DNA of 64,000 nt from Anaerolineae bacterium (GCA_034411995.1 DAOUME010000022.1:3965-67964), one strand, 5' to 3'; positions 1 through 31,679 are shown, counted from the stretch's first letter. A program made the numbers and translations. Notes: generated by a model not told the origin, from the sequence alone.

Positions 1-389
1 CTGACCCCTTGCCTCCCGTATGGGGACTAGCGAATCAACTGAAGCAAGTCTTCCTCAACATCATCATCAACGCCGTGGAAGCGATGCCTGGGGGAGGCGA
101 TCTGCACATCGATACGGATGGGGACGAAGAACGGGGCGAGGTAAGTGTGAGCTTCACCGACACGGGTGCGGGTATCCCCCTCTCGGAACTCGGCAACATC
201 TTCGATCCCTTCTTCACCTCAAAGCCCAAGGGTACGGGGCTCGGCCTTTCTATCAGCCACGGCATCATTGAGAGACACGGAGGGAGGATCGAGGTCAAGA
301 GCGAGGCCGGCAAAGGGTCCACGTTCACCGTACATCTTCCCACTCAGGCGCGGAGCCTACACGCGAACGCAATTTCTCCGGCTCGGTGA
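1..389 (+). CDS. sensor histidine kinase, C-terminal HATPase_c fragment (5' end outside window)
   Basis: ORF open to window edge; motifs NIIINAVEAM (N box), DTGAGI (G1), GTGLGLSISHGIIERHGG (G2). Confidence 0.85.
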   Translation, partial: DPLPPVWGLANQLKQVFLNIIINAVEAMPGGGDLHIDTDGDEERGEVSVSFTDTGAGIPLSELGNIFDPFFTSKPKGTGLGLSISHGIIERHGGRIEVKSEAGKGSTFTVHLPTQARSLHANAISPAR

Positions 390-430
390 GCAGCATGATC
401 CACGAGCGTTGCAGCACGAGCGCGCAGTTG

Positions 431-459
431 TTGACAACTGCGAGAAAAGGTGATATACT
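431..459 (+). promoter_or_regulatory. sigma70-type promoter of the Roadblock/MglA operon
   Basis: TTGACA (431-436), 17-nt spacer, TATACT (454-459) with TG at 451-452 (extended -10); about 140 nt upstream of ATG 598. Confidence 0.5.
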
Positions 460-527
460 ACACTGGCAAGGCCCTCGCGTCTGCAACCACGTTGGTCCCT
501 TGTCTTGCCGAGGGGAGTTAGTCAGCA

Positions 528-569
528 GGTCAGCTTCTGTGGAGATGGAATAGGGGGCTGGCCTTTTTT
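528..569 (+). terminator. leader hairpin plus T6 tract (possible attenuator inside the 5' UTR)
   Basis: GGTCAGC (528-534) pairs with GCTGGCC (557-563, one G-U), followed by TTTTTT (564-569), 29 nt before the start codon. Confidence 0.3.
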
Positions 570-597
570 GCATTCGGGTAGATGACGAGGGGAGGGC

Positions 598-1203
598 ATG
601 AGAAGACAGGCCGTTTCTTCACTGTCGGGGGAGTACCTGGAAGCCATCAGCAGGAGGCTGAAAGAACTGCTTGTCGATGCCGATGCGGCGTCCGTGGTCA
701 TGGTCGACACCATGGGCCAGGTCATCGCGCAGGCCGGAGAAGTCGGCGATCTCGACATCACCACCGTCGTTTCGCTCCTGGCAGCCAGCTTCGCCACCAC
801 CTCGGAAATGTCACGTCAATTGAAGGAGGCGCGCAGGACGTTCAACCTCACCTTCCACGAAGGAGAGAGGTATGACATCTATGCGTCCAACATCGCCAGC
901 GGTCTGTTCCTGGTCCTGATTTTCGACAGGCATGCCTATGCTCCCAAGATCGGGATGGTCTGGCTGTACATCAAGCGGAGCATTCAGGACCTGCTGCGCA
1001 TCGTGGCCGAGACAGACGCCGCAAGGCCCAAGGAGACCCTGACCTCTGACTTCGCCAAGTCCCTTAGCAGCGAGCTGGATAACCTCTTCCAGGATAGAAA
1101 AGCGCCAGCGCCACCGAGTGGCAAATGGGAGGAGGAACAGATGCAGGACCTGATCCGTTGGCGAACCAGAGGCCCGCAAGGGTCCACGAAAGGGGAGGGG
1201 TAG
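598..1203 (+). CDS. Roadblock/LC7 (MglB-like) domain protein with charged C-terminal tail
   Basis: Roadblock-like pattern VVMVDTMGQVIAQAG...YDIYASNIASGLFLVLIF; stop abuts next start (TAGATG). Confidence 0.7.
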   Translation: MRRQAVSSLSGEYLEAISRRLKELLVDADAASVVMVDTMGQVIAQAGEVGDLDITTVVSLLAASFATTSEMSRQLKEARRTFNLTFHEGERYDIYASNIASGLFLVLIFDRHAYAPKIGMVWLYIKRSIQDLLRIVAETDAARPKETLTSDFAKSLSSELDNLFQDRKAPAPPSGKWEEEQMQDLIRWRTRGPQGSTKGEG

Positions 1204-1893
1204 ATGCCGCTCGAGGGAAACCTGCGGGAGCTAAGCCTGACGAACATCATCCAGTTGAACTGCAACGAAATGAACACCGCCACAGTGGTTCTGATGCACG
1301 AAGGCAGGGAGGGCATCGTCTGCTTCTCAGATGGAGCGGTCGTGCACGCTGCCGTGGAGGACCTGGTCGGTGAGGAGGCTGTCTACGAACTCCTCGCCTG
1401 GCCGGACGGGTCTTTCGTCGTGCACCAGGGACAGGCGGCGCCGGAGAGAACCATCTCAGGCAATTGGAACACCCTTCTTCTCGAGGGTATTCGCCGACTG
1501 GATGAAGGCGAGAGCGTGACGTGGGACAAGGTGGAGGCGGAACCCGCCACGGCCTCATCCGATCAGGGTGATGACATGACCAGACTCGCTCACGATCTGA
1601 AGATGATAGGCGGTGTGGAAGGGACGGTCATCATCTCCCACGACGGAGTGGTCTTCGCCAGTGACATCGATGGCAACCCTGAGAAAGAGGGTGCGGTCGC
1701 TGTGTTCGTGGGCAATGCGGCCAAGGAAGCAGGGGAAATGATGGAGCTTGCCCCGTTCGACTGGGGACTGATTACCATGGGCAAAGACAGAATGCTGGTC
1801 ATGGAACGGCCCAGGTTCTTCGTCGGCCTGGCCTTGGGCGAGAAGGCGTCACCGGCCCTGGTGAGCGCCGAGGCAGCGAAAATTCTGGGATAG
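1204..1893 (+). CDS. DUF4388 (PATAN-type) plus Roadblock/LC7 fusion protein
   Basis: N-terminus GNLRELSLTNIIQLNC...GIVCFSDGAVVHA...AVYELLAWPDGSF (DUF4388-like); C-terminus VEGTVIISHDGVVFAS...MLVMERPRFFVGLAL (Roadblock-like). Confidence 0.7.
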   Translation: MPLEGNLRELSLTNIIQLNCNEMNTATVVLMHEGREGIVCFSDGAVVHAAVEDLVGEEAVYELLAWPDGSFVVHQGQAAPERTISGNWNTLLLEGIRRLDEGESVTWDKVEAEPATASSDQGDDMTRLAHDLKMIGGVEGTVIISHDGVVFASDIDGNPEKEGAVAVFVGNAAKEAGEMMELAPFDWGLITMGKDRMLVMERPRFFVGLALGEKASPALVSAEAAKILG

Positions 1894-1909
1894 AAACGGA
1901 GGGAGGCCC

Positions 1910-3070
1910 GTGGAACAACTCTTGGCTGACATCAATGCTGTGGCTGGCGTGAAGGGGTCCTTCGTATGCGACGTAGACGGCGCGATAGTGGCGCGAGCCC
2001 TACCCGCATCCCTCGATGAGACCAGAATCCTGCCTGCCGCTCGTACCATTCTGCAAACCATCGACGGATTGGAAACCACCAGACGGCGCAAGGTCCAGGA
2101 ATTGGACATACTCTTTCGCGACGCACGGATGGTCGTCAAGAACCTGCGTGTAGGCTGCCTGTACGTCGTCTGCGCGCGCAACATCAATGTCCCCCTGCTG
2201 AACTTGACGGCCAACCTGTCGGCGAAGAAGCTGGCCGAGATGCTGAAGGAGCCAGAGTCGGAAACCGCCGGCCCTCCAGCGGTAGCAGTGGCCGCGGAGA
2301 AAGCCGCAACGCTCGAGGAGGTCCCCACCGGAGACCCCTCCGTCTTGCTGCTGGCGCGGGCCCACGAGCTCATCGGCGCTGCCTCGCGGAGAGGTATCTG
2401 TCTGCGCCTCCTGGGAGGCATGGCCGTCAAGGCCACGTGTGGGAGCGCGGCCAGCATTTCCCTGCCACCGGAGGGACTCGACCTGGATCTCGCCGCCTAT
2501 GGCAAGGATCGCAAGCAACTGGAACTCGTCATGGAGGAGCTGGGTTATGATCCTCAGCGACGCTTCAACGCCCTGCACGGGCACAGACGCCTCAAGTACT
2601 TTAACGAGGAGCAGGGCCTTGGGCTGGACGTGTTCGTCGATACCTTCCACATGTGTCACCAACTGCCCTTCAGCGATCGCCTGGAGATGAGCGAGTTCAC
2701 GCTGCCCATGGCCGATCTGTTGCTGTCCAAGCTGCAGATAGTGCAGATGGGAGAGAATGACCTTAGAGACATCTACGCCATCTTATGTGATCACGAACTC
2801 GGGCACCTGGGAGACGTGGACAGCGTGGAAGCCAGCTACATCGGCTCCATCTGCAGCGATGACTGGGGCTGGTACAAGACGATCACCCTGAACCTGACCA
2901 AGAGTATAGAGTTGGTAGATGACTTCCTGGCAGACGAGGAGAGGGAGGTTTACGTATCCCGCGCCCGTCAACTCATGCAAGTCATCGAGGCGGTGCCCAA
3001 GTCGCTCCGCTGGCAGGCCAGGGCAAGGATTGGCGAGGCCAGGCGCTGGTACGACTTGCCTGAAGAGTAG
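1910..3070 (+). CDS. Roadblock/LC7 plus nucleotidyltransferase-like fusion protein
   Basis: N-terminus VKGSFVCDVDGAIVARA (Roadblock-like); C-terminal half has a Pol-beta-type NTase signature LLGGMAV...GLDLDLAAY; GTG start after GGAGGGAGG. Confidence 0.6.
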   Translation: MEQLLADINAVAGVKGSFVCDVDGAIVARALPASLDETRILPAARTILQTIDGLETTRRRKVQELDILFRDARMVVKNLRVGCLYVVCARNINVPLLNLTANLSAKKLAEMLKEPESETAGPPAVAVAAEKAATLEEVPTGDPSVLLLARAHELIGAASRRGICLRLLGGMAVKATCGSAASISLPPEGLDLDLAAYGKDRKQLELVMEELGYDPQRRFNALHGHRRLKYFNEEQGLGLDVFVDTFHMCHQLPFSDRLEMSEFTLPMADLLLSKLQIVQMGENDLRDIYAILCDHELGHLGDVDSVEASYIGSICSDDWGWYKTITLNLTKSIELVDDFLADEEREVYVSRARQLMQVIEAVPKSLRWQARARIGEARRWYDLPEE

Positions 3071-3094
3071 CGACCAACTGATGGAGATGGCAAG

Positions 3095-3577
3095 ATGCAG
3101 CATCTGAATCCCCCAGACGAGCTTTTCGTCCGCATGGATGACTGCCTCGAGCGGCTCCTCGATCGGAGCCGGGCAGTCTGCGTACTACTGGCCGACATCA
3201 GCGGACAGTTGATCGTACAAAGAGGCAAGGACACCAGATTGGACACCTCGGCGCTGGCAGCCGTCACCGCCAGCAACATGGCAGCGACCGAGGAGATGGC
3301 CAGGCAGATAGGTGAGCCTGCACCTTTTTCCTACCTCTTCCACGAGGGGACCAGGCGGAGCATCTACGTCTCGGCCGTCGGCAAGACTTTTCTGCTGGTG
3401 ATCGTCTTTGACGAGATGTCACAAGTGGGGTTGGTGCGCATCTTCGCCAGGCTCGCGGTGAACGAACTGCTGGAGGTCACCACCGAGCTCGAGCCCTGGT
3501 TGGAGAAGGCAGGTTCGGTGGTGGATCGCGACTTCGGTGGGGCACTGGCCGACCAACTGGACAAAGCGTTCATCTGA
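3095..3577 (+). CDS. Roadblock/LC7 domain protein
   Basis: VCVLLADISGQLIVQRG...SIYVSAVGKTFLLVIVF pattern; GGAG 8 nt upstream of ATG. Confidence 0.7.
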   Translation: MQHLNPPDELFVRMDDCLERLLDRSRAVCVLLADISGQLIVQRGKDTRLDTSALAAVTASNMAATEEMARQIGEPAPFSYLFHEGTRRSIYVSAVGKTFLLVIVFDEMSQVGLVRIFARLAVNELLEVTTELEPWLEKAGSVVDRDFGGALADQLDKAFI

Positions 3578-3613
3578 TCGAGAGGAACCACGGCCTTTGC
3601 CGTGGAGTGCACC

Positions 3614-4186
3614 ATGTTCGTCAACTGGAAGATGCGCGAGATCAACCTCAAAGTGGTGTACTACGGGCCGGCCCTCAGCGGCAAGACTACCAACCTGGAG
3701 TACATCTACAGCCGAACCAACCCAGAGCTCAGGGGAGAGCTCATCTCCCTCAAGACCCGCGGTGATCGCACGGTGTACTTCGATTTCATGCAGCTTGAGC
3801 TAGGGCGGATCAAGGGACTCAAGCCCAAGTTCAACCTCTACACCGTGCCCGGGCAGCCCTGCTACATAGCCAGTCGAAGACTGGTTCTCCAGGGTGCGGA
3901 CGGTGTGGTCTACGTGGCCGATTCCCAATTGAACCGACTCAAGGCCAACATAGATACGATGCGGAGCCTGCACCAGAACCTTCAGACCCTGGGGTTCGAT
4001 CCGCGCGACTTTCCCCTGGTGATGCAGTACAATAAGCGGGATCTGCCCAGCATAGCGCCCGTCGCCCTTCTGCGGATGCAGCTAGCCCACGACGGCGTCC
4101 CGCAGTTCCAATCGGTAGCCACCGAGGGCGTCGGCGTTCTGGAGACACTGAAGGCCGCCATCAACTTGGTAGTTTCCAGGCTGTAG
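3614..4186 (+). CDS. mglA: MglA-family Ras-like small GTPase
   Basis: P-loop YYGPALSGKTT, switch II TVPGQ (Thr instead of Asp, an MglA hallmark), NKRD; start moved to ATG 3614 to match MglA N-termini (MFVNWKMREINLKVVYYG). Confidence 0.85.
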   Translation: MFVNWKMREINLKVVYYGPALSGKTTNLEYIYSRTNPELRGELISLKTRGDRTVYFDFMQLELGRIKGLKPKFNLYTVPGQPCYIASRRLVLQGADGVVYVADSQLNRLKANIDTMRSLHQNLQTLGFDPRDFPLVMQYNKRDLPSIAPVALLRMQLAHDGVPQFQSVATEGVGVLETLKAAINLVVSRL

Positions 4187-4191
4187 GAAGA

Positions 4192-4572
4192 ATGCCCAAG
4201 ATACCCTTCGAAGAGACCCTGGAGAGAATCAACCGCGAAGGCAAGTTCGAGGCCTCGGTGCTCGCCACCCACGACGGCCTGCCCATCGCCACCGCACCCT
4301 CGGACTACGACACCGAGATCACGGCCGCCATGGTGGCCCTGCTGAGAAGTGCGGCACAGCAGACTCAGGTCCAGGTGGGATTGGCTGCGGTGGACGAAGT
4401 CTCCATCAGGTCCTCCGATCACATACGGCTGGTGTGCCGCTCTTTCCAGGTGGACGGCGAGGATTTCATCCTGGCGGTCGTGGTGCCCGCCGAGCAACGC
4501 TACTACAGGCAGCTCACCAACCGGGCGATCAAGGAGCTCAGAACAGCCTGGCGCGCCATGGTCCGGGCTTGA
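4192..4572 (+). CDS. Roadblock/LC7 domain protein in the MglB position
   Basis: ASVLATHDGLPIATA...EDFILAVVV pattern; starts 6 nt after the mglA stop. Confidence 0.7.
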   Translation: MPKIPFEETLERINREGKFEASVLATHDGLPIATAPSDYDTEITAAMVALLRSAAQQTQVQVGLAAVDEVSIRSSDHIRLVCRSFQVDGEDFILAVVVPAEQRYYRQLTNRAIKELRTAWRAMVRA

Positions 4573-5187
4573 CGGCCCGCGCACTCGACGAAGTTGCGGT
4601 ATCCGGGTGCACGCTGGATATCTCTCCGGTTTCTTCGTCCGTTCGAGGCCACTGGCGGGGATCCCGAGAGCAAGCCCGGCGCCGGACCGCCAGGACCACG
4701 GACTACCAGCCCGACTCGTCGTACCTGCCCCTGGCCGCAGCCAATCACACCAGGCAGACGTGCCTTCTTTCAGTCCGATCCTTCTCGCCCATGTAGCCCT
4801 CGCTGACGATCAGCATACGATTCTGGCACTGATCGTCTTCCTCGCACCTCGCTGGTCGGTTTTCGGATCGTGCGCCCCCTCCGCAGGGAAAGCGGAGTAG
4901 TGGTTGGGCTTCCACCCTCCTGGAAGCGAAGTCCCACGCGCCGCAACGGACACCCCCTCGTCTGGAGCGACGTGGGCGCGGCTCACGCTGGTCACCCTGA
5001 CGGGGAGTCGCAGAGGCTCCCCTTCACGGCCTGACGCCGAAGATGGCCCAGGGCTACCAGTTCCCGAAAGGGAGAGGTCCCCCGGTGTTCGACCGAGGGA
5101 CCTCTGGCGATGGCGTCTAGCCTTGAGTCTGGCAGCGCACCGCCACGGCGGATGCCCACGGCGCGCCTGGCGGTCTGAGCTTTTGCG

Positions 5188-5835
5188 TCACTCCCCCACC
5201 GCCGTCTCCGTGGCTCTCGGCGTGGAGACAGCACCAGGGGTGGCGGGCTCTGCGCTCACCGTCGGTCCCGGTGTATCGGTGGGTGTGGGCGTGGGTTTCT
5301 CGGGCGGCTCGCTGATCAGCCGCTCCAGATCCCCGATGGCGGAGGAGGCCACCAGATAGACTTCGCTGCCCCCTTCTCTTTGTACGTAACTGGAGTAACC
5401 AGCGGGGTTCTTGTTCCCGACCAGGAGTACCTGGCTGCCACCGTCTGCCAGGCCAACCTCCACGCGCAGGGCCGGTTCGGCGAGACCGAAGGCCTCCAGA
5501 TCCACATCCTCCCCCTCCACGACTCTCGTGGACTGCATCTGCGACAGGCTCCCCAGGAGCCCCTCAATCCGCGTCGCATCCGCCTCGGCCTCGAGAGGCG
5601 CGGTCAAACGCCACATCCCCTCCGCAAGCCTCCGGACCATCACCGATTCGCTGCTCCTCTGATCGGTCACCTCCAGCGTTACGGCGTCTTCCACTTCGAA
5701 AGAAAACACGGGTACTCTACCCTCTTCCTCGGGCGCCGTCTCCTGGCCGCCCCTCATCTCCAGCACGAAGACCAGTGCCGCCAGGACCACGAAGACGGCC
5801 ACCACTATGATCGTAGTTCGCTGGTGTAATCTCAT
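5188..5835 (-). CDS. DUF4340-like membrane-anchored protein
   Basis: Single N-terminal TM helix and Pro/Thr-rich tail; sits after the GldG-like gene as usual; ATG 5835 lies 5 nt after the upstream stop. Confidence 0.6.
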   Translation of the reverse strand: MRLHQRTTIIVVAVFVVLAALVFVLEMRGGQETAPEEEGRVPVFSFEVEDAVTLEVTDQRSSESVMVRRLAEGMWRLTAPLEAEADATRIEGLLGSLSQMQSTRVVEGEDVDLEAFGLAEPALRVEVGLADGGSQVLLVGNKNPAGYSSYVQREGGSEVYLVASSAIGDLERLISEPPEKPTPTPTDTPGPTVSAEPATPGAVSTPRATETAVGE

Positions 5836-5840
5836 CGCTG

Positions 5841-7373
5841 TTACCTTCGCCTCCACCAGACCACGGCGCCGACCAGCAGGATTGCCGCCGGCAAGAAGAT
5901 GACGCTGGAGTACTGCAAGAAACGAGCTTGCCCAGGGGACAGGACCAGGACGCGAGACACGGGCGGCTTCGGCCTTATGGAAATCAGCTCCTCTTCCTCA
6001 GCCAACCAGTTCACGCTATTGAGGAAGAGATCGCTGTTTCCTCCCAGCGTCAGGCTGGAGTTGCCGGCAAAATCCGAGTCTCCAAAGACCACCAGGCGCG
6101 TCCCCACGGTCGCCTCTCCTTCGCCCTGAGCCTCCACGCCCATGGCCATGGACAGCGGTCCCGCGGTGTCTGCGCCAACGTCGTACCGGGCTTCCTGCCG
6201 GCGCAGCGCCTCAAAGTCGGTTTCTCCCCAGCTCCCCTCACTGGATTCCACGAGGGCGAGCGCCGTCACCCCCTCCGGCTGCTCCACCGTGCGGGTAATC
6301 GACCTCGCCGTACTCAGCACCACGCCGGGCAAGTCCCGTGTGATTTCGCTGAACCGGAAGCTATCGACCACGGGCGACAGCGGATCGACGCCGAAAAGCC
6401 CTCGCTCAGGATCTATGACCACGTCATCCTCGTACTCCACACCCCACTCGCCCAGCACCTCGCTCAGGGCCGGTTCCTGCCCAGGTTCTTGCATGATCAG
6501 TGCCTTTCCCCCCTGCTGCAAGTAAGCGCTGATAGCCTCGCTCTCCTGCTCCAGCAAGGGAGTGCTGGGCGCCGCCACCACCAGGACAGATGCATCGACG
6601 GGAACGGTGCTGCTGATCGCCAGATTCAGCGTATTGACGACGTAGTTATCTCGCTCCAGGGCATCCCGGATCTCACTGTAGTCAGACTGATCGTACCCAC
6701 CCGGGTCGCGCTCACCGTGTCCGGTGAGGAAGTAGACGACCTTCTGCGAGTCTCGCGATACCTTCAGAAGGGCCCCGGTGATCTCCTGCTCGTCCACCGT
6801 CAAGCTGTCCTGTCTTCTCCCCGCGCACTCGAAGACGATCGTGCCGTATGACGTGATACCATACTGTTGAGCCACAAAGGGCTGCACGTCGGGATCCACG
6901 ACCTCATACGTGATCTTGTCCGTATGGTACACATACTCGGCCAGCAGGTCATCCAGTTCCTGCTGCGCGGGATCGCCCTGCACGAAGAAGGCCGTCACCT
7001 TCACAGGCTCAGTGAGATCAGACAAGATCTGCATCGTCTCAGGCGACAGCGTATAATCCTGAAACTCCGTCAGATCCAGACGTCGATGATGTCGATCCCC
7101 CAGGAAATTGAGGAGAACCAGTATGCCCAGGAAAGCTACGATGGCGATGCCAATGTTGGAGCCATACCTGGCCGCACGCCCAGTGATGGCAGACCTCAAG
7201 GCGTCCGGCCTGGCCGCCACGGACGCCACCAGCAGGATGGCACCCAGCCCCAACAACGCCTCCACGCGCAGGTCCAGCTCTTGGGTCAGTAGATACAGAA
7301 TCACCGCCAAGGTCAGAATAGCCAGCCCGGCGATGCCACCAGGAATAGCCAGGCGTTTCCACCAACCGCGCAT
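5841..7373 (-). CDS. GldG-like auxiliary component of an ABC-2 transport system
   Basis: N- and C-terminal TM helices; conserved VYFLTGHGE motif; abuts the ABC-2 permease. Confidence 0.75.
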   Translation of the reverse strand: MRGWWKRLAIPGGIAGLAILTLAVILYLLTQELDLRVEALLGLGAILLVASVAARPDALRSAITGRAARYGSNIGIAIVAFLGILVLLNFLGDRHHRRLDLTEFQDYTLSPETMQILSDLTEPVKVTAFFVQGDPAQQELDDLLAEYVYHTDKITYEVVDPDVQPFVAQQYGITSYGTIVFECAGRRQDSLTVDEQEITGALLKVSRDSQKVVYFLTGHGERDPGGYDQSDYSEIRDALERDNYVVNTLNLAISSTVPVDASVLVVAAPSTPLLEQESEAISAYLQQGGKALIMQEPGQEPALSEVLGEWGVEYEDDVVIDPERGLFGVDPLSPVVDSFRFSEITRDLPGVVLSTARSITRTVEQPEGVTALALVESSEGSWGETDFEALRRQEARYDVGADTAGPLSMAMGVEAQGEGEATVGTRLVVFGDSDFAGNSSLTLGGNSDLFLNSVNWLAEEEELISIRPKPPVSRVLVLSPGQARFLQYSSVIFLPAAILLVGAVVWWRRR

Positions 7374-8084
7374 CTACCTCCACCTCCTCAACTGCAACAT
7401 CTGTACCGACAAGAAGAGAAACCCAGCGGTAGCGCTGAGGTAGAAGATGACGTCTTTGGTATCCACGATACCCCTGAGGAAATCGAAGTAGTGAGCGGAC
7501 ATCGAAAGGTAAGCCACGACATCACCCACAGGAGGGCCAAAGAGGCTTCCTGCGACGTCCACCAGCCAGAGGATGAGCATCGCTCCAAAGGCCAGCAAGG
7601 CTGCCACTACCTGATTTCGACTCAAGGAAGACGTAAACAGCCCAATAGACAAGAACGTCGCCCCCAGCAACGCCAGACCCACATATCCGCCGATGATGGC
7701 ACCTCGATCGGGATTACCGAGGCTGATCATGAGGAGCGGGTAGTATAGAGTCAGGGCCAGCATGACCCCGTAGACACCCAGACCGGCCAGGAACTTGCCC
7801 AGGACCACCTCCCAGTCCCTGACGGGCAGGGTGAGCAACAACTCGATGGTGCCTGACCTCTGTTCTTCGGCCAACAGTCGCATGGTCAGCGCGGGGGTCA
7901 CGAACAGCAAGGTGACCGCCATGTTGGCAAAGACTCCCCTCAGCGAGGCCTCTCGGGTATAGTAGACGATCAGCGAGAAGAAGAACCCCATGATCGCCAG
8001 AAAGGCAGCGATCACCACGTAGGCGATGGGGGATGCAAAATAGGCGTGCAGCTCTTTGCGGGCGATGACGACCATGTTCCTCAT
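7374..8084 (-). CDS. ABC-2 family permease (GldF-like)
   Basis: Hydrophobic multi-TM protein between the ATPase and the GldG-like gene, with no intergenic gaps. Confidence 0.8.
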   Translation of the reverse strand: MRNMVVIARKELHAYFASPIAYVVIAAFLAIMGFFFSLIVYYTREASLRGVFANMAVTLLFVTPALTMRLLAEEQRSGTIELLLTLPVRDWEVVLGKFLAGLGVYGVMLALTLYYPLLMISLGNPDRGAIIGGYVGLALLGATFLSIGLFTSSLSRNQVVAALLAFGAMLILWLVDVAGSLFGPPVGDVVAYLSMSAHYFDFLRGIVDTKDVIFYLSATAGFLFLSVQMLQLRRWR

Positions 8085-9026
8085 TTAGGCAGCCTCCTCT
8101 CCCTTGTGCGCTTCCTCTTCCGTGGTCAACCTCAGGAAGATGTCTTCCAGCGTGAGCCCCAGCGGGCGCAGCTCCAGCAAGCCCCAACCCTGCTGAACCA
8201 CCAGAGAGGAGATCTCGGCACGGGGGTCCAGTCCGGCGCCGCACGCGACCACGTACTGGCCGTCTCCGCTGGTCTCCACGCCCGTCACACCCTCTATGGC
8301 GCCCACGAGTCTCACCACGTCTGGAGATGGATCCCGCACCTGAACCAGGACACGCCGAGCCTGCTCGAGCTTCGATCCCAACTCCTCGGGAGTGCCCTCA
8401 GCGGCTATCTCCCCCTCGTTGATGATCACCAACCGATTGCAGACCTCGCTGGCCTCGGGAAGGATGTGGGTACTGAGAATGACAGTGTGACTTCCTCCCA
8501 GACCCTTGATCAGTTGCCGCACCTCGCGGATCTGTCTGGGATCCAACCCGATGGTTGGCTCATCGAGGATGAGCACCTGGGGATCGTGGACCAGAGCCTG
8601 GGCCAACCCCACTCGCTGGCGATAGCCCTTGGAAAGTCTGCCGATCAAGGCGCCTGCGAAGTCGGTGAGATCGCACGTATCCATGATCTCCTCGATGCGC
8701 CGGCGACCATCGCTCACGTGGCGAATGCTGGCCACGAAGCTCAGGTACGAGGACACCGTCATCTCCGGGTAGAGAGGGACCATCTCGGGCATGTATCCGA
8801 TGCGCTTCCTCACCTCGAGAGAATCCTCCCAGACGTCGAACCCGGCGACGCGGGCCGTTCCAGCGCTGGGAGGCATGAAGGCAGTGAGAATGCGCATCGT
8901 GGTGGTCTTGCCCGCCGCGTTGGGACCCAGGAAAGCCAGGATCTCGCCGTCCTCGACTCGAAAACTCACGTCCTTGATCGCTGCGAAGCTCCCATAGTAC
9001 TTGGTGAGGCCCTCAACCTCTATCAT
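8085..9026 (-). CDS. ABC transporter ATP-binding protein (GldA-like)
   Basis: Walker A GPNAAGKTT, signature LSKGYRQRV, Walker B LILDEPT; start moved to ATG 9026 (GGAGGA RBS). Confidence 0.9.
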   Translation of the reverse strand: MIEVEGLTKYYGSFAAIKDVSFRVEDGEILAFLGPNAAGKTTTMRILTAFMPPSAGTARVAGFDVWEDSLEVRKRIGYMPEMVPLYPEMTVSSYLSFVASIRHVSDGRRRIEEIMDTCDLTDFAGALIGRLSKGYRQRVGLAQALVHDPQVLILDEPTIGLDPRQIREVRQLIKGLGGSHTVILSTHILPEASEVCNRLVIINEGEIAAEGTPEELGSKLEQARRVLVQVRDPSPDVVRLVGAIEGVTGVETSGDGQYVVACGAGLDPRAEISSLVVQQGWGLLELRPLGLTLEDIFLRLTTEEEAHKGEEAA

Positions 9027-9262
9027 CTTTATCCTCCACTGGTGCTGGCCAGTCCTCAAATAGAGTGAAAGCACAAGGCTCGGCTCTCCGTCGCGTCACC
9101 ATGTGCTTCCCACCATGCGTTCTGTCAGCGCCGATATTACGGCACAAGCGGCACAGTGTCAAGTCACCAACAACTCAGGGTACCTCCGTCCTTCGGGGCG
9201 ATGGTCGAAATAGTATGCCCACCGCGGTGCGGGGCATCGGCCGCTCCGGGTCATCAGGGATC

Positions 9263-12327: not shown

Positions 12328-13095
12328 TCACCGCCGACTCGCCGCTGGCTTCCTGCCCAGGGCCCAGAAATGGGGCATGAAGAACAGACGCGATCCGTCC
12401 TGGAGAGCCTTCCACGCCCGGTTCCGATACCCCCGCAGTAAGGCTCCGTCGGCGACGTTGTCCAGCGTCTCGAAGATGAAATCCCATTCTGCATCGAACT
12501 CCTCCGAGAGCTGCCGGTCGTCCCAAACAGAGCCGATAATCCCCGCTTGCGCCACCAGCCCGGCGCCCGAGAGAAGCGCCTTCAAGCGCCGGCCGAGGCG
12601 AGGATTCGCCCCCTCGCGGCGCAGCGACTCCTCCATCAGCGGGCCCAGCTCAATGTCTTCTGGATAGTCTATCCGTCCCCCGTAGTCAGGCTCCGTCGTG
12701 GCCAGGACCGCGCCACCCTCCTTGACCACGCGAGCCATCTCCTGCACTACCAACGCCGGGCTCTCCACCCACAACAACAGGTAGCTGCACACCACCAGGT
12801 CGAAGCTCCCGTCTCGGAACGGCAACTGCTGGGCATCTCCCACCAGCCAGTCCACATCCGAGATCCAGGCGGCCGCAAACCTGATCACGGACGGGTCCAG
12901 ATCGAGACCCGTCACCCTCCCTCGGGTTCGCTGCGCGATCTCTGCGGTCACGGCCCCGGTGCCGCAGCCGACGTCGAGCACCCTCTCCGCGCCCCACAGT
13001 CCCGCCTGGCGATAGAGATGAAAACGTGTTTCCTGGGTCCAGTGAGCCTGCCGCTGGAACTGCCGATGCCATTGCTCAACGGTGAGGCTCACCAA
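12328..13095 (-). CDS. class I SAM-dependent methyltransferase
   Basis: Motif I VLDVGCGTG, GLDLD, Methyltransf_11-like spacing; TTG/GTG start. Confidence 0.85.
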   Translation of the reverse strand: MVSLTVEQWHRQFQRQAHWTQETRFHLYRQAGLWGAERVLDVGCGTGAVTAEIAQRTRGRVTGLDLDPSVIRFAAAWISDVDWLVGDAQQLPFRDGSFDLVVCSYLLLWVESPALVVQEMARVVKEGGAVLATTEPDYGGRIDYPEDIELGPLMEESLRREGANPRLGRRLKALLSGAGLVAQAGIIGSVWDDRQLSEEFDAEWDFIFETLDNVADGALLRGYRNRAWKALQDGSRLFFMPHFWALGRKPAASRR

Positions 13096-13158
13096 TGTCG
13101 CTCCATCCTGCCTGCCGATGGCCCCCGTACGGAAGAGCCGATGATCACGAAGAGCGAT

Positions 13159-14532
13159 CTAGACCGCGGTTGACGTGCTCTCGACGCACAGGGCACCCTG
13201 GTTCTTCAGGTACAGGGGGCACCCACCACCACACAGCGGCAGCTCATCGCAGGAACGACATTTCTCCATCACCCAGTCCCTGTTCCTGAGACTCACCGCC
13301 TCCTCATGATTCCAGATGGAACCCCAGTCGTCTCGAAGTATGTTCCCCAGGCTCGAATAGTAGCTCTGGCAGGGAATGACGTCCCCGTTGGGCTCGACGC
13401 ACATGTTGTACCTGGCGGCCGTACAGAACTTGGCTCCCAACTCCAGATCCACCGGATGGAACTCACAATACTGCGTCGGCGTGTACCAGATGAGCCTCAT
13501 CCCCTCAGCGATCGCCTTGTCGCGCACCCTGACCATGAGACCTTCCAGCTCTGTTTCCAGGATGCCGATGCCGCTGGAGGGCCCCTTCCCAGAATAGATG
13601 AGACTGTTGCAGGCAAAGGTCTCGATCCCCAGCTCCTTCAGGAACTCTATGGTCCGCTCGAACTGCGGAGCGTTCAGAGTGGTCAGCGTGCTATTGGTGA
13701 TCGTATAGACGTCCGTGGCGACCGCGTTCTTGATGCCCTGCACCGTCTGCTTCCAGACCTCTGCCCCCACCATCCGGTTGTGGATCGCCTCGTCGTGAGA
13801 CTCCAGCGTGATCTGAATGTGGTCCAACCCCGCGTCCACCAGCTCTTCAAGGTACCCTTCGTCCGCCAGCTTGATGCCGTTGGTTAGCAGACCAGCGACC
13901 AGCCCCACGTCCTCGGCGTGCCGAACCAGCTCGACCAGGTCGGGGTACAGGGTCGCCTCTCCCCCGGTGAAGACCACGTGCGGTATGCCCAGGTCCCACA
14001 GCTTGTCGATAACCTGTTTCCACTCCGCCGTGGTCAGGCTCTCCATATCCCTGGGGCGGCCAACGTAGCAGTGCCCGCAGTCAGCGTTGCACCTGTAGGT
14101 GAGCGCCAGGTCCATACGGTAGGGCGCCGAGACAGGTGTGTTGAAGGGTTCGATCCTCTGTACGTCCAGATACGAGATGGGGCACACGTTGTCGGTGGTA
14201 GCCAGGGTGAAGATGGTGTCTTTCAGGTGCTCGTAATCCTCGCGCAGCCTGGCCGTCGACGCTTTGTAACGCCTCTTCAGCTCTCTGACCGCCTCATCTG
14301 TGTCTTTGCCCTCGACGAGCAGCTTGGCATGCTCGGTGGCCGTCTTGTTGAGGTGCAAGACCTTCGCGGCGTTGACCACCAGGATACCCTCGCCGTTATC
14401 CTCCACCCGCAAATGGATCCGGAATCGCTGGTCAGCACCATCCGGAGTCATGTAATGGAACATGCCCTTCTCCAAGGGTTCGGGTGCCGTAGGAAAGAAG
14501 GTGTCCTTCAAAGACCGCCAAACGCTCATCAC
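13159..14532 (-). CDS. radical SAM/SPASM domain enzyme with N-terminal PqqD/RRE-like extension
   Basis: CNADCGHCY (CxxxCxxC); C-terminal Cys clusters CTAARYNMCVEPNGDVIPC and CRSCDELPLCGGGCP; about 140 aa N-terminal extension (ILVVNAAKVLHLNKTATEHAKLLVEGKDTDEAVRELKRRY). Confidence 0.8.
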   Translation of the reverse strand: MMSVWRSLKDTFFPTAPEPLEKGMFHYMTPDGADQRFRIHLRVEDNGEGILVVNAAKVLHLNKTATEHAKLLVEGKDTDEAVRELKRRYKASTARLREDYEHLKDTIFTLATTDNVCPISYLDVQRIEPFNTPVSAPYRMDLALTYRCNADCGHCYVGRPRDMESLTTAEWKQVIDKLWDLGIPHVVFTGGEATLYPDLVELVRHAEDVGLVAGLLTNGIKLADEGYLEELVDAGLDHIQITLESHDEAIHNRMVGAEVWKQTVQGIKNAVATDVYTITNSTLTTLNAPQFERTIEFLKELGIETFACNSLIYSGKGPSSGIGILETELEGLMVRVRDKAIAEGMRLIWYTPTQYCEFHPVDLELGAKFCTAARYNMCVEPNGDVIPCQSYYSSLGNILRDDWGSIWNHEEAVSLRNRDWVMEKCRSCDELPLCGGGCPLYLKNQGALCVESTSTAV

Positions 14533-14637
14533 ACGCCCTCCGCCCGTTTTCTAGAATGTCGCAGCGCCCTCGTCACTCCGCGACCCCGACGGTGCCCTGG
14601 CCCGTCGACATCGTGCGCGCATCCCTCTACTTCCGCT

Positions 14638-14666
14638 AGTATACCATAGAGGATAGTCTCAAGCAA
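14638..14666 (-). promoter_or_regulatory. candidate promoter of the radical SAM operon
   Basis: On the minus strand TTGCTT (14666-14661), 17-nt spacer, TGgTATACT (-10 at 14643-14638). Confidence 0.4.
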
Positions 14667-14700
14667 AAGAGGCCGCCTCAACAGAGACTGAGGCGGCCTC
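14661..14700 (-). terminator. intrinsic terminator of the SIMPL gene
   Basis: Perfect 12-bp stem GAGGCCGCCTCA/TGAGGCGGCCTC (14669-14700) followed on the minus strand by TTTTGCTT. Confidence 0.7.
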
Positions 14701-14737
14701 CGATGTTTCCCGCGAGCGCGTTGCTCCAGGGAGACTA

Positions 14738-15478
14738 TTAGCGAATGTCGAAGGTGACCTGGACCTGCACCGAGACCTCCAACTGGCCCGGCTGCACCGG
14801 CGCCGCACCTCCGCCTATCGCTCTCTCCGCGGTAGCGTAGATCGGCTCCAGATAGTACGGTGGCGACTCCGTGAAGGATTCGTTGATGTACCGGGGTCTC
14901 CCCAGCCCTACACCAGCCAACTGAGCCAGCGCCTCTGCCTTGTCTCGCGCCTGAGCCATCGCGTCGGCCCTGGCCTCTTCACGTAGCGCTGTGGGATCAT
15001 CGAACGTGAACCGGATGCCGTAGATGTTATTGGCTCCCGCCCCGGTCGCCGCATCCAGTACGTCTCCCGCCTTGTCTACCTCTCGCAGTTTCACCACCAC
15101 GGAGTTGTCGACCACGTAGCCGATGACCCGCTGCTCGTCGTCCTCCCAGTCGATCTCAGCCCGGACGCTGTAATCCACCGTCTGGACGTCCTCCTCAGCG
15201 ACTCCCAGCTCCAGGATCGCAGCCATCACGTCGGCCATCCGCTCGTCGTTCTCCGCGGCCGCCGCCCGGGCTTCTGCATTCCTCGTCTCCACCCCGATGG
15301 TGATCATGGCCAGATCTGGTTTCGCCGTCGCTTTTCCCTGGGCCATGACTGTGATGCCGGTCGGCTCTGTCACACCGCCCGACGGGCTAGGCACCGCCAC
15401 CACCATCAACTGAAGCACCAGCACGACAGCCACTAGGACCAGGCCCACTGCACCCACGACGATACCTGCTTTGGACAT
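14738..15478 (-). CDS. SIMPL (DUF541) domain secreted/membrane-anchored protein
   Basis: N-terminal TM/signal helix; DUF541-like pattern ITVMAQGKATAKPDLAMITIGVE...VSVQVQVTFDI. Confidence 0.75.
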   Translation of the reverse strand: MSKAGIVVGAVGLVLVAVVLVLQLMVVAVPSPSGGVTEPTGITVMAQGKATAKPDLAMITIGVETRNAEARAAAAENDERMADVMAAILELGVAEEDVQTVDYSVRAEIDWEDDEQRVIGYVVDNSVVVKLREVDKAGDVLDAATGAGANNIYGIRFTFDDPTALREEARADAMAQARDKAEALAQLAGVGLGRPRYINESFTESPPYYLEPIYATAERAIGGGAAPVQPGQLEVSVQVQVTFDIR

Positions 15479-15621
15479 CTCGACTTGCCCTCCTTACAGA
15501 CTTGGTCTGATCGCGCCCCAAAAGCGCGTCTCTCTCAGCATGTAGACGACGCGGAGAGGAAGAAGGTTCCCCAGCCCCAGGGAGGAGCGAGAAACAAGAG
15601 CGGAGGCTAGCACCATACCAC

Positions 15622-15648
15622 AAAAAAGGCCCCAGCTCACGCCGGGGC
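15622..15648 (-). terminator. intrinsic terminator after tRNA-Leu
   Basis: 8-bp stem GCCCCGGC/GCUGGGGC (its G-U pair works only on the minus-strand RNA), GUGA loop, then CUUUUUUG. Confidence 0.6.
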
Positions 15649-15660
15649 TCCCATGCTCAG

Positions 15661-15744
15661 TGCCGAGAAAGGGACTCGAACCCTTACGGGGTTACCCCCA
15701 CTGCGCCCTGAACGCAGCGCGTCTACCTGTTCCGCCACCTCGGC
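15661..15744 (-). tRNA. tRNA-Leu (anticodon CAG), class II with long variable arm, no encoded CCA
   Basis: Hand-folded cloverleaf: acceptor GCCGAGG/UCUCGGC, anticodon stem CUGCG/CGCAG with loop UUCAGGG, variable arm GGGG-UAA-CCCC, T arm AAGGG-UUCGAGU-CCCUU, discriminator A. Confidence 0.9.
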
Positions 15745-15789
15745 ACGGCACCTGAAGCCAGTATATACTCACTGGACCCGTTTGTCAAG

Positions 15790-17442
15790 TCATTCCTGCG
15801 GCTCCTCGCTGACCACCATTCTCCGGGTCTTGATGTACCACTGGCTGACGGTACGGAAGCGATCGCTGGGGTCGACGAGGGGACTCAACTGCACGCCGTT
15901 CACCATCTCGTCGACCGCGTAGTTGTACACCGGGTAGTAGAGCAGCAAGGCCGGCACCTCGTCGGCGAATAGATCCTGGAAGTCCCGGTACAGTTCGGCT
16001 CGTTCGGCTTGATCGGTGCTCTGGCGGCCCTGCTCCAGGAGCTGGTCGATGTCCACGTTGTTTAGGCCGCCATAGTTCTGCCCCTCCCCACCAATCTGCG
16101 TCGAGTGCCACATCAAGTAGGGGTCAGGATCGCTGGGCAGATTGCCCCAACTGAACAACAGCGCATCGAAGTTGCGGGGTCGAAGGGCCTCGTTCACCAC
16201 CCAGGCGCTGTCTTCCACGACGGGCACTACTCTGACTCCCACCTCCCACAGTTGGCGGGCGATCTCTTCGATGATCTGTCGACGCAGAGGGTCCTTGTTG
16301 GTAAGCAGGTTGAACTCCAGCCTGACCTGCTCCTTCTCGCGAACACCGTCATGATCGCTGTCCACCCAGCCGGCCTCCGTCAGCAATTCAGCGGCCTTGC
16401 CCGGATCGTAGGTGTACTGGTGGACATCGTGGTTGTACGCCCAGGAGTCAGGCATGATCGGGGTGTGGGCCACGATGCCCTGCCCGTCGAGGATGCTATC
16501 GATGATACCCTGGCGGTCGATGCCCCACAGCAACGCCTGCCGCACCTCCTTGTCTTCGAAGATGGGCAGGTCGAGATTGAGAAAGATCAACGTGTAGCCG
16601 GACAGACGCGCGGTGTACAGGTTCAGGTACTCCTCCTCCCGCACCTTGGGCAGGTCCTCCGGCAAGACCTCGCTGATGCCCTCCACCTCGCCTTGCTGAT
16701 AGGCGGTGAAGATGCTCTGGTTGTCCGGATAGAACTTGAACTCGATCTTCGAGAGGAGAGGTTGCTCGCCGTAGTAGTCCGGGTTGGCCTCCAGGATCAC
16801 GTAGTCGGTGCTGACCTCACTGATCTTGAACATGCCCGTCCCCACGGGGCGCACGCTGAACTGATCTCCCGGCAGGTCGCCGGCCGGAACGCTGGCCAGC
16901 ACGTGCTCCGGAAGCATGCCCACCGTCGTGTAATCCAGGAACGTGGCCAGCGGGGCCTGCAAGGTGAACGTGACGGTGTAGTCGTTGATCTTCTCGGCGA
17001 CCACCGTGCGCCACAGCTCGGCCAGTTCAGGTGGGCCCTGGTAGTCCTCATCCTGCATGGCGCTTACCGTGAACAGCACGTCATCTGCCGTGAACGCCTC
17101 CCCATCGTGCCAGACCACGTCCCTGCGCAGATAAAAGGTGTACACCAGGCCATCGTCAGACAAGTCCCAGTCCCTGGCCAGAGCAGGCACGATCTCGCCA
17201 CGCTCGTTGAGGTCGGTGAGACCCGAGAAGATGAGGGAGACCAGATCGGTGTCGACCTGGTTGTACTGACAGAGGATGGGGTTGATGTAGCTGGGGCGTC
17301 CGGCGACGCCCTCCACGTAGGTGCCACCGGCGTCAGGGACGACCACGGTGGTGGTGGTGTACGCGACATACCACAGGAGCAGAATGATCAGCGCCACGCC
17401 TACGATGGCGATGACAGCTTGCCAGCGGATATGTCTCGTCAA
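15790..17442 (-). CDS. ABC transporter substrate-binding protein, family 5 (OppA/DppA-like)
   Basis: 550 aa, N-terminal TM anchor, SBP_bac_5-like sequence (LARDWDLSDDGLVYTFYLRRDVVWHDGEAFTADDV). Confidence 0.85.
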   Translation of the reverse strand: MTRHIRWQAVIAIVGVALIILLLWYVAYTTTTVVVPDAGGTYVEGVAGRPSYINPILCQYNQVDTDLVSLIFSGLTDLNERGEIVPALARDWDLSDDGLVYTFYLRRDVVWHDGEAFTADDVLFTVSAMQDEDYQGPPELAELWRTVVAEKINDYTVTFTLQAPLATFLDYTTVGMLPEHVLASVPAGDLPGDQFSVRPVGTGMFKISEVSTDYVILEANPDYYGEQPLLSKIEFKFYPDNQSIFTAYQQGEVEGISEVLPEDLPKVREEEYLNLYTARLSGYTLIFLNLDLPIFEDKEVRQALLWGIDRQGIIDSILDGQGIVAHTPIMPDSWAYNHDVHQYTYDPGKAAELLTEAGWVDSDHDGVREKEQVRLEFNLLTNKDPLRRQIIEEIARQLWEVGVRVVPVVEDSAWVVNEALRPRNFDALLFSWGNLPSDPDPYLMWHSTQIGGEGQNYGGLNNVDIDQLLEQGRQSTDQAERAELYRDFQDLFADEVPALLLYYPVYNYAVDEMVNGVQLSPLVDPSDRFRTVSQWYIKTRRMVVSEEPQE

Positions 17443-17501
17443 GGGAAGAATCAGGCTCCTTCCAGAGGTCTAGGGCGAAGGTCTGCCCCTACACCGGGGC
17501 T

Positions 17502-17726
17502 TTACGGCTTGACAAGAACCGAGGCCAGCGAGAAGACGAAGAAGACAACCGTCAGGACGATGGTGAGGTTGAACAACGTCTTCTCTGCACCGCGGCGCGT
17601 CTTGTAGATCCCGGCGTCAGTGCCCCCGAAGATGCCCCCCAGGCCCTGACCTTTGACCTGGAGAAGAACGGCCACGATGAGACAGGTCGAGATTATGATC
17701 TGCACGATTTGCAAGTAGCCAAGCAC
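17502..17726 (-). CDS. secG: preprotein translocase subunit SecG
   Basis: 74 aa, two TM helices, VLLQVKGQGLGGIFGG motif. Confidence 0.85.
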   Translation of the reverse strand: MLGYLQIVQIIISTCLIVAVLLQVKGQGLGGIFGGTDAGIYKTRRGAEKTLFNLTIVLTVVFFVFSLASVLVKP

Positions 17727-17803
17727 TTGACCACCTCCAGACTTCCTACATTATAGCATCCCACCCGTCCACCTGTCAAACTCCGCCCACAGGAGGTTGT
17801 CAT

Positions 17804-17832
17804 GTAGGGGCGACCCGGCGGGTCGACCCTAC
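17804..17832. repeat. REP-like palindrome of the GTAGGGGC...GCCCCTAC family
   Basis: GTAGGGGCGACCCGGCGGGTCGACCCTAC in the secG-lepA intergenic region. Confidence 0.7.
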
Positions 17833-17857
17833 TCTTACCATACCCTCCAGCACCGTC

Positions 17858-17886
17858 TTTCAGTTTGGGGTCGATTCAAGTATAAT
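17858..17886 (+). promoter_or_regulatory. candidate lepA promoter
   Basis: TTTCAG (17858-17863), 17-nt spacer, TATAAT (17881-17886). Confidence 0.35.
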
Positions 17887-17943
17887 GAATCGAAGCCAAC
17901 GTAAAGACACTACCAGTGCCCTGCGAGCACTCTCTCCCCGGCC

Positions 17944-19746: not shown

Positions 19747-19764
19747 GAACAGCCAGAGCAGGCC

Positions 19765-30600: not shown

Positions 30601-30679
30601 TGAGGAGATAGACGCGCTGGTGTATGAGTTGTATGGGTTGACCGAGGAGGAGATCGCTATCGTGGAGGGTCGGGCGTGA
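27647..30679 (+). CDS. type IIG restriction-modification enzyme (fused PD-(D/E)xK nuclease, N6-adenine methyltransferase and specificity domain; Eco57I-like)
   Basis: PDYCF...FFLEAKKP nuclease motif, LDPACGSGSFLL motif I, NPPY at 29345-29356, tail LVYELYGLTEEEIAIVEG; 1010 aa; GAGGAGGAAAG RBS. Confidence 0.9.
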   Translation: MVAQEDRPQATAPPESRREIEGLVQRFARNRDVYTRPDYKETQVRVEFIDPFFEALGWDVRNVKGYAEQYKDVVHEDAIKISGATKAPDYCFRVGGVRRFFLEAKKPSTAVKGEVGPAYQLRRYAWSARLPLSLLTDFEELAVYDCRQRPRPTDKAGVGRVMYYTFDQYLERLDEIYSIFARESVLKGSFDRYVEDTKRQRGTSEVDVEFLKEIEGWRDELARNLALRNPQLSVHELNFAVQRTIDRIIFLRMCEDRGIERYGGLLGLTAGPHVYDRLGELYREADQKYDSDLFDFQADRLTRSLSLDDKTLKPILSGLYYPDCPYEFSVLPPEILGQVYEQFLGKVIRLTAGHRAKVEEKPEVKKAGGVYYTPSYIVEYIVQQTVGRLIEGKTPQQISKLHILDPACGSGSFLLGAYQHLLDYHRRWYEEHDPEKYATAKRPALYQGRGGEWRLTTGEKKRILLNNIYGVDIDRQAVEVTKLSLLLQVLEGESQETLGQQLKLWRERALPDLGENIKCGNSLIGPDYFEGQLLPDEEEMRRVNPFDWEKEFLQIMKAGGFDAVIGNPPYIRIQRIEHSVADYLFRSYRAPTSKTDLSLVFLERALALATDSGLVGFICTSQWLSTDYGRNMRAMLSDGRLHQVVDFGSLPVFQKANTYPAILILSPTRCDALALKRIRRGEQLNLPGIQATDPVLIDLDGLSDDPWNLGRLDIPTLLGERGLEWRPLSAYANAYIGVLTGMDRAFVVETRAAKQLQLETDLLLPYAYRGAEVQRYAQVEPGALVIYPYREGPGGAPRLIPEPELRRHYPNIHQHLVAHKDALRERRDSRRFYAKGPDWYRHLRAGSFDYIHARKLLVKGIETRTVVGLLDAGTAFNGANCPGVIVEEPQQLSPLYILGILNSGVMSYHLRMICPAKLGGYTRFNARGINSAPIRTLSRTDRAEEARHDKMIALVERMLDLHEKLAAATIPADKKLYQRQIEATDEEIDALVYELYGLTEEEIAIVEGRA

Positions 30680-30828
30680 GCGGACGGCGCAGCTGGTCGA
30701 GCCGCACATCCGCTGGTAGGCGCGATGGCCCCGAATCTCGCAATCAGGGCAACCCAATGGGCAGCTAGGTTCGACAGCCGGCCGCGGCCGTGCGGATATT
30801 GGCTGGGCCGGGAGCGCGGAGAGTTGGA

Positions 30829-31656: not shown

Positions 31657-31679
31657 TGGGCGAACCAGCAAGTGGCGCC

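Follow-up and report, generated by a model that had tools for sequence, protein, structure and literature searches.

The MglA/MglB system is the model for the Ras-like switch that sets bacterial polarity, and mechanistic work on it comes nearly all from one organism. In this system, one MglB dimer binds one MglA asymmetrically (PMC11016934), and MglB is bound by MglC, a Roadblock paralog (PMC7949163). PATAN genes are neighbours of MglA and MglB genes, and the 2014 survey of Wuichet and Sogaard-Andersen lists 'PATAN, MglA, MglB-MglB' neighbourhoods for the Group 1 MglA proteins of Chloroflexi in its text and Table S2 (PMC4316618). In the table, Chloroflexus and Herpetosiphon have this arrangement and Sphaerobacter has 'MglB-MglB MglA', and Makarova 2006 is cited in the survey for the link between PATAN and MglB. 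Here we analysed a related locus in a 64,000-nucleotide (nt) stretch of DNA from Anaerolineae bacterium (GCA_034411995.1), hereafter called the window. Its six genes (g1 to g6, Table 1) encode MglA (g5), two MglB-like Roadblock proteins (g1 and g4, MglB1 and MglB2), a short Roadblock protein (g6, R6), a fusion of a PATAN and a Roadblock domain (g2, PATAN-Rbl), and a fusion of a Roadblock domain with a nucleotidyltransferase (NTase)-like domain (g3, Rbl-NTase or Rbl-NT).

The Chloroflexi neighbourhoods of 2014 share with this locus the phylum, a single MglA, a coupled pair of MglB genes and a PATAN gene, and therefore the skeleton of the locus was already on record. The survey labels MglA, MglB and PATAN genes only. 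The word 'nucleotidyltransferase' is absent from it, and we found nothing there about the PATAN protein having a Roadblock domain, about the Rbl-NTase fusion, R6 or a two-module structure, or about pairing with GTPases in which a receiver (REC) domain is fused to a Ras-type domain (REC-Ras). In the literature searched, we found no paper with a Roadblock-NTase fusion, R6, the PATAN-Rbl/Rbl-NT cassette, its coupling to REC-Ras or the decay of its catalytic site, and nothing relevant on the function of PF14907. An earlier reading of the window, made from the sequence only, had not recognised the architecture as characterised; this stands for the Rbl-NTase fusion and fails for the PATAN/MglA/MglB-MglB part. 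The locus is a real, conserved variant of the MglA/MglB system with one seemingly undescribed component.

Judged by its sequence, g5 is a true MglA of the Group 1 type. It matched MglA of Myxococcus xanthus (6hjh) over the full length (residues 5–193, E 9e-67, ~57% identity) and MglA of Thermus thermophilus at E 1e-61. The P-loop (GPALSGKTT), the Arg finger (DRT), YTVPGQ and NKRD are all there. YTVPGQ and GDRT align with T78/Q82 and R53 of M. xanthus MglA, which are the Thr-for-Asp of G3, the catalytic Gln and the intrinsic Arg finger. Because its orthologs are 190 amino acids (aa) long, the start of g5 is likely the ATG at 3614. One mglB-like gene (g4) lies directly upstream of mglA and the other (g1) four genes upstream, so that mglB coupling is found within four genes.

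Among the five Roadblock proteins, g4 is the nearest to characterised MglB (Pfam Robl_LC7, 40.8 bits; phmmer, E 4e-21 to M. xanthus MglB; NCBIfam MglB, 65.5 bits). The corresponding values for g1 were 26.6 bits, 4e-15 and 62.2 bits. g1 carries an MglB-type C-terminal helix motif (ELDNLF) followed by a tail of ~35 aa, and its alignment to M. xanthus MglB spans the C-terminal helix of the latter (DDIDNLF). The families of g1 and g4 were aligned by hhalign with a probability of 99.8%, showing that they are clear paralogs. The orthologs of g1 in three loci (L002, L019 and L022) are fused to REC. A weak match of the g1 profile at 54817–56046 was considered as a further Roadblock gene and rejected: it is a REC-LytTR response regulator, and the match was probably caused by the REC-fused g1 orthologs within the profile.

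The short protein g6 matched Pfam Robl_LC7 with 39.2 bits, and g1, g4 and g6 exceed the cutoff of this model. The solved structures that the g6 family profile matched best are those of Asgard Roadblocks (E 3e-4) rather than MglB or MglC. As a candidate MglC, g6 was rejected, with no match to MglC (7cy1) at E ≤1 for the single sequence or ≤10 for the family profile. R6 lies directly 3' of mglA in 23 of the 24 MglA-linked loci, and in L018 the contig stops within R6. When g2 and g3 are added, a Roadblock fold or profile match is present in all five proteins for which the sequence-only reading had predicted one.

The locus thus resembles the MglA/MglB(/MglC) systems of M. xanthus and T. thermophilus in its Group 1-type MglA with intrinsic Arg finger, TVPGQ and Gln, in MglB-type partners with the C-terminal helix motif, and in an additional Roadblock protein. 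It differs from them in having two MglB paralogs instead of one homodimer, in that g6 is not detectably MglC, in that none of RomR, RomX and RomY was seen, and in that PATAN-Rbl and Rbl-NTase are placed inside the operon.

We predict that the six genes comprise one operon, based on their short spacing (gaps of 0, 16, 24, 36 and 5 nt from g1 through g6) behind a conserved predicted promoter. The promoter matches the sigma-70 consensus at 11 of 12 positions, where 0.8 sites of this quality are expected by chance in 5.4 kb, and sequence alignment showed that 13 of the 14 related six-gene loci retain it. The initial description of six tightly packed genes following a strong promoter was therefore accurate. 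Conservation of the 5' leader between promoter and g1 is unusually high in 13 related loci. The leader can form a hairpin with a stem of 9 bp, which is supported by RNAalifold with one-sided base changes only, and a conserved loop of 18 nt. Together with the U-run, the hairpin looks like a terminator or attenuator placed ahead of the ribosome-binding site; an Rfam scan of positions 1–5200 for a riboswitch gave no match. The G+C content is ~0.59–0.60 across the operon (1–4000) and 0.64 in 4001–6000.

The histidine kinase gene that had been noted just upstream does end there. In relatives, the full-length kinase has the composition GAF-GAF-HisKA-HATPase_c (593–597 aa); a homologous open reading frame (ORF) is present 5' of the operon in 14 loci, and it is conserved in the close clade. 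The kinase gene is a conserved neighbour but a separate transcription unit, ending before the operon's own promoter, and the GAF-GAF kinase could be an input to the MglA operon. A histidine kinase gene beside Roadblock and MglA-family GTPase genes is also found in the conservons of Streptomyces and Mycobacterium (CvnA-D, Mfp). However, none of the six proteins matched DUF742/CvnC, the kinase is a soluble GAF-GAF protein with its own transcription unit rather than a membrane histidine kinase-like CvnA, and MglA is Group 1-like, not Group 2.

To evaluate conservation, we scanned 185,579 species genomes, which gave 167 confirmed loci; the best 80 of these were examined together with seven metagenome loci. 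Every ORF in the loci was classified using family hidden Markov models, and the modules were defined from a census of 85 loci. More than 650 homologs of g3 were found, and the closest relatives of the window are metagenome-assembled genomes (MAGs) of Anaerolineae/Chloroflexota. The exact order MglB1, PATAN-Rbl, Rbl-NT, MglB2, MglA, R6 was found in 17–19 Anaerolineae loci, over which the identity of g3 falls from 85% to 45%; the arrangement is thus not unique to this genome. Five loci (L023, L025, L026, L027 and L033) have the permuted order MglB1, MglB2, MglA, R6, PATAN-Rbl, Rbl-NT. The cassette of PATAN-Rbl and Rbl-NT therefore lies between the two mglB genes in the window and after R6 in these five loci, and the operon consists of two modules, the MglB1/MglB2/MglA/R6 block and the PATAN-Rbl/Rbl-NTase cassette.

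The two genes of the cassette stay together. A PATAN/R2 gene is located within 1.6 kb 5' of the Rbl-NT gene in all 45 cases having at least 900 nt of upstream sequence. The two are directly adjacent in 37 of these, and the other 8 were confirmed by hand from coordinates; in those, a small R3-like Roadblock gene intervenes, the g3 ORF is over-extended, or (L033) an uncharacterised gap of 1.5 kb is present. Among 28 well-flanked loci, 26 contain a small GTPase, which is MglA in 13 and REC-Ras in 13. The latter, ~310 aa long, joins the receiver domain to a G domain of the Ras/Roc type (137 bits with Pfam Ras). The REC-Ras loci, found in other Chloroflexota, have no MglA, MglB or R6. What is conserved as a unit is the cassette rather than the set of five Roadblock proteins, and its link is to small GTPases from two families.

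These results bear on the proposal of the sequence-only reading that MglA is surrounded by a single multi-subunit scaffold of the Ragulator/LAMTOR kind, made of all five Roadblock proteins, in which PATAN provides the input and the NTase an enzymatic output. One operon does hold five real Roadblock domains, relatives with added Roadblock paralogs reach seven such domains per locus (L025 and L027), and higher-order complexes of MglB and MglC are known in M. xanthus (PMC7949163). However, the five proteins are not an obligate set: they split into two separable blocks whose order varies, and the cassette occurs without MglA, MglB and R6. The catalytic residues of the NTase, described below, are not conserved across the fusion family. 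In addition, Rag GTPases sit on Ragulator through their own Roadblock C-terminal domain, whereas MglA of the locus is a single 190-aa G domain lacking it. No LAMTOR1-like wrapping subunit was detected in the operon, and the matches to LAMTOR proteins (11–20% identity) reflect the shared fold only; for the Ragulator/LAMTOR-Rag complex and the Asgard Roadblock proteins taken together, the identity is 10–20%. The likeness to Ragulator is one of fold and number only, and we regard a scaffold of this kind as quite unlikely.

Other variants among the relatives agree with this picture. L045 (9239–11712) and L052 (minus strand) contain an unfused trio consisting of a divergent NTase paralog (298 aa), an R2-like Roadblock protein (98 aa) and a Roadblock-V4R protein (304 aa), which repeats the link between Roadblock and NTase-like proteins. 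In REC-Ras-type loci (L001, 7242–8455; L028, L032, L036, L042 and others), a conserved gene of ~90 aa is often located between the Rbl-NTase and REC-Ras genes. Precomputed Pfam results assign this gene (cluster 9) to DUF7990, and our own Pfam scan gave no match; it was rejected as Roadblock-like (hhalign probability <2%). In L087 (6001–8284), g3 has an extra C-terminal DUF8082 of ~80 aa, and a gene for a TarH/4HB-HAMP membrane protein lies between g3 and mglB2. DUF8082 may be a docking domain for the HAMP receptor, because it is also found on a PATAN protein beside a TarH-HAMP gene in L086. In L086, a second large cluster (12955–21170, minus strand) directly downstream of the six-gene operon contains genes for three Roadblock proteins, PilZ, two MglA-like GTPases, HATPase_c, TarH-HAMP, PATAN-DUF8082 and REC-PATAN.

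We analysed the domains of the two cassette proteins. g2 consists of a PATAN domain (~1–102), a disordered linker (103–121) and a Roadblock domain (122–228), and its residues 4–101 matched PATAN/DUF4388 (PF14332) with 76.9 bits against a cutoff of 25. g3 consists of a Roadblock domain (1–113), a disordered linker (115–140) and a minimal pol-beta-type NTase-like domain (143–386), and its structure was predicted confidently (pLDDT 87.5). The C-terminal domain of g3 has the NTase fold, and the domain calls of the sequence-only reading (Robl_LC7, DUF4388, NTase and MglA with TVPGQ) were all correct. Automatic annotation at JGI labels many homologs of g2 and g3 as 'predicted regulator of Ras-like GTPase activity (Roadblock/LC7/MglB family)'.

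The fold of the g3 C-terminal domain resembles the active minimal NTases MenT1, ANT(2'') and LnuA. At the sequence level, g3 scored 17.6 bits with Pfam NTP_transf_5, under the cutoff of 31.2 (25.8 bits for the stand-alone homolog P0118), and the profile of the domain gave no significant match against the PDB, ANT(2'') appearing at E ~1.4 only. Unlike the known minimal pol-beta NTases (MenT1/MenT3(TglT), ANT(2'')/AadB, LnuA, JHP933; NTP_transf_5), to which it has no significant sequence similarity, the domain is fused to Roadblock, has lost catalytic residues in many orthologs, and has a family signature of its own (RFNxxxG, MCH, DDWGWYKT and PKSxxW..R).

A rival reading takes g3 for a MenT/AbiEii-type toxin or defence NTase regulated by its neighbours, and the locus for a toxin-antitoxin or anti-phage system. 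PADLOC models hit none of g1–g6 nor the stand-alone homolog, and no sequence-related solved structure was found, which argues against such a role. An antitoxin gene similar to AbiEi or MenA is absent, the neighbours being MglA, MglB and Roadblock genes. The same order is inherited with the MglA genes while the identity of g3 falls from 85% to 45%, which is typical of a housekeeping regulatory operon and not of a mobile defence island, and the catalytic residues decay in many members. A toxin or defence function is therefore very improbable.

The C-terminal domain belongs to a large family. Its profile found 2669 representatives at 50% identity clustering, 738 of them at E ≤1e-30. Most members are stand-alone proteins of ~250 aa from Anaerolineae and archaea (Bathyarchaeia and Nitrososphaerales), and all sampled members with any name are called 'hypothetical protein'. 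R166, RFNxxxG, H250, Q276, DDWGWYKT, K364, W368 and R371 show no variation, or almost none, family-wide; K364, R371 and the WGW motif are invariant in fusions and stand-alone homologs alike. Stand-alone homologs (L004, L031, L034 and L062–L085) are common in the two archaeal groups, and Anaerolineae have them as second copies too. Frequent neighbours are a gene resembling Metallophos, an NTase paralog that is divergent and lies on the opposite strand, and genes for two small proteins, one of which seems to be membrane-bound. Genes beside the stand-alone homologs (clusters 10 and 11) were rejected as Roadblock-like, as all hhalign probabilities were <2%.

Conservation of the putative catalytic residues (G169, G170, D191, D193 and D244 in the numbering of the window) differs among the groups. 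The set is complete in g3 of the window and its clade, and it is intact in 35 of 35 stand-alone homologs, except that D244 is substituted in 3. Among 25 MglA-linked fusions, G170 is kept in 14, D191 in 15 and D193 in 17; D191 is lost in 4 and replaced by Glu in 6 more, and the motifs are degenerate in about one third. All 22 REC-Ras-linked fusions lack the first Asp (D191). On our reading, the ancestral stand-alone protein would have been an enzyme. The function common to the Rbl-NT fusion family is probably not catalysis, because the catalytic residues are lost or degenerate across the fusions, and what ties the cassette to GTPases after the fusion could be nucleotide or partner binding. Catalytic activity may persist in the window copy. 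The nucleotidyltransferase output proposed by the sequence-only reading is uncertain; the fold had been called correctly, and g3 of the window has the catalytic residues.

An active g3 that is tethered by its Roadblock domain and nucleotidylylates MglA, an MglB or another partner would add a covalent layer to the GTPase cycle. The intact catalytic set of the window's clade and of the stand-alone homologs, the similarity of the fold to active enzymes, and the invariant K364/R371 pair are consistent with this idea, and an NTase-fold enzyme modifying a small GTPase has a precedent (PMC7815794). On the other hand, the loss of catalytic residues in the REC-Ras-linked and many MglA-linked fusions indicates that catalysis is dispensable for what keeps the cassette by GTPases. 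The NTP_transf_5 score is below the cutoff, and the enzymes nearest in structure have tRNA or antibiotics as substrates rather than proteins. Nucleotidylylation by g3 is therefore unlikely, and for the clade of the window it would be compatible with the two-module explanation given below. The precedent, Legionella DrrA/SidM acting on Rab1, likewise couples an NTase-fold domain to the regulation of a small GTPase (PMC7815794). The analogy is conceptual only: DrrA is a secreted effector of the GlnE type fused to a GEF (guanine nucleotide exchange factor) domain. We see a slim prospect that the cassette is an unrecognised class of small-GTPase regulator or effector serving both MglA and REC-Ras. 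In that case, where the catalytic residues are kept, as in the window, the tethered NTase would nucleotidylylate the GTPase or its GTPase-activating protein (GAP), an endogenous bacterial counterpart of the DrrA-type AMPylation of Rab1, and elsewhere it would be a nucleotide-binding pseudoenzyme.

The explanation that we consider somewhat better supported than not is that the locus is a Chloroflexota version of the MglA switch, encoded in one operon and built of two modules. In the first module, g1 and g4 would form a heterodimeric GAP for MglA, fixing in two genes the asymmetry that an MglB homodimer adopts on one MglA, and g6 would form an accessory Roadblock dimer that is MglC-like in role and not homologous to MglC at the family level. 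In the second, the Roadblock domains of g2 and g3 would pair into a heterodimeric platform docking on the GTPase or on the MglB dimer. The PATAN domain of g2 may link this platform to a partner such as the type IV pilus motor or a polar landmark; PATAN response regulators of Synechocystis bind the type IV pilus motor (bioRxiv 10.1101/2021.06.11.447907). The NTase-like domain of g3 would serve mainly in nucleotide or ligand binding or as a scaffold, possibly remaining catalytic in the clade of the window. The domain identities, the gene spacing, the conserved order, the modularity and the pairing of the cassette with REC-Ras were observed; the dimer partners, the roles as GAP, GEF or effector, and a cellular output in polarity or motility are proposed.

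Several points weigh against this explanation. Roadblock domains generally tend to dimerise, and the pairings g1:g4, g2:g3 and g6:g6 are inferred from this tendency and from gene co-occurrence. The NCBIfam model NF052242, built on Thermus-type MglB, has an equivalog cutoff of 200 bits, and g1 and g4 are well under it at 62–65 bits; for this reason we term them MglB-like paralogs, not equivalogs. No pilus or motility genes were found among the 27 large ORFs of the 64-kb window scanned by Pfam. The full catalytic set retained by g3 of the window leaves a purely non-catalytic role for this protein not established. Finally, the related loci are mostly MAG contigs with naively called ORFs.

Table 1 Features of the MglA operon and its upstream region in the window.
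Feature	Position	Strand	Description
Histidine kinase gene, 3' end	9–389	+	Pfam HATPase_c, 98 bits
Predicted sigma-70-type promoter	431–459	+	TTGACA-17-TATACT with extended-10 TG; 11/12 consensus positions
Conserved 5' leader, ~135 nt	465–597	+	Hairpin arms 528–536/555–563, U-run 564–569, ribosome-binding site ~587–596
g1	598–1203	+	201-aa ORF; MglB-like Roadblock protein 1 (MglB1)
g2	1204–1893	+	229-aa ORF; PATAN(DUF4388)-Roadblock fusion
g3	1910–3070	+	386-aa ORF; Roadblock-NTase-fold fusion (Rbl-NTase, Rbl-NT)
g4	3095–3577	+	160-aa ORF; MglB-like Roadblock protein 2 (MglB2)
g5	3614–4186 (ATG; ORF also opens at GTG 3602)	+	190-aa MglA, small GTPase of the Group 1 type
g6	4192–4572	+	126-aa ORF; short stand-alone Roadblock protein (R6)

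Downstream of the operon, the window contains a convergent operon on the minus strand (5188–9074) encoding DUF4340, ABC_transp_aux (GldG-like), an ABC-2 permease and an ABC ATPase, which resembles the GldA/F/G set. In L009, L015 and L020, the region downstream of the operon showed R6-, MglB2- and (L015) MglA-like genes only, instead of the ABC transporter of the window. Further along, a radical SAM/SPASM enzyme gene (13159–14532) adjoins a class I methyltransferase gene (12328–13095) on the minus strand, and this region (12328–14532) may be a peptide-maturation or cofactor locus. The stretch from 27647 to 36100 has a lower G+C content (0.55–0.59 at 30–36 kb) and contains genes for a 1010-aa Eco57I/MmeI-type restriction-modification fusion (27647–30679) and a HEPN_LA2681 protein (31852–33510); it is probably a defence island. 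Three ORFs of 615, 351 and 366 aa (25287–27134, 35030–36085 and 51234–52334) had no Pfam match at E ≤1e-5.

The locus represents an alternative, phylum-wide design of the MglA switch, in which the putative GAP is divided between two paralogs and further Roadblock proteins are a fixed part of the operon. MglA and the unrelated REC-Ras GTPase have in common a cassette of two Roadblock genes whose products carry PATAN and NTase-fold appendages, and the family of stand-alone NTase-like proteins is likewise uncharacterised. Should the cassette bind GTPases, it would provide a simple bacterial system for the recognition of small GTPases by Roadblock heterodimers, which bears on the origins of Ragulator, Rag and the longin/Roadblock GEFs, and it could show that GTPases are controlled at a new level, by nucleotidylylation or by a pseudo-NTase that senses nucleotides.

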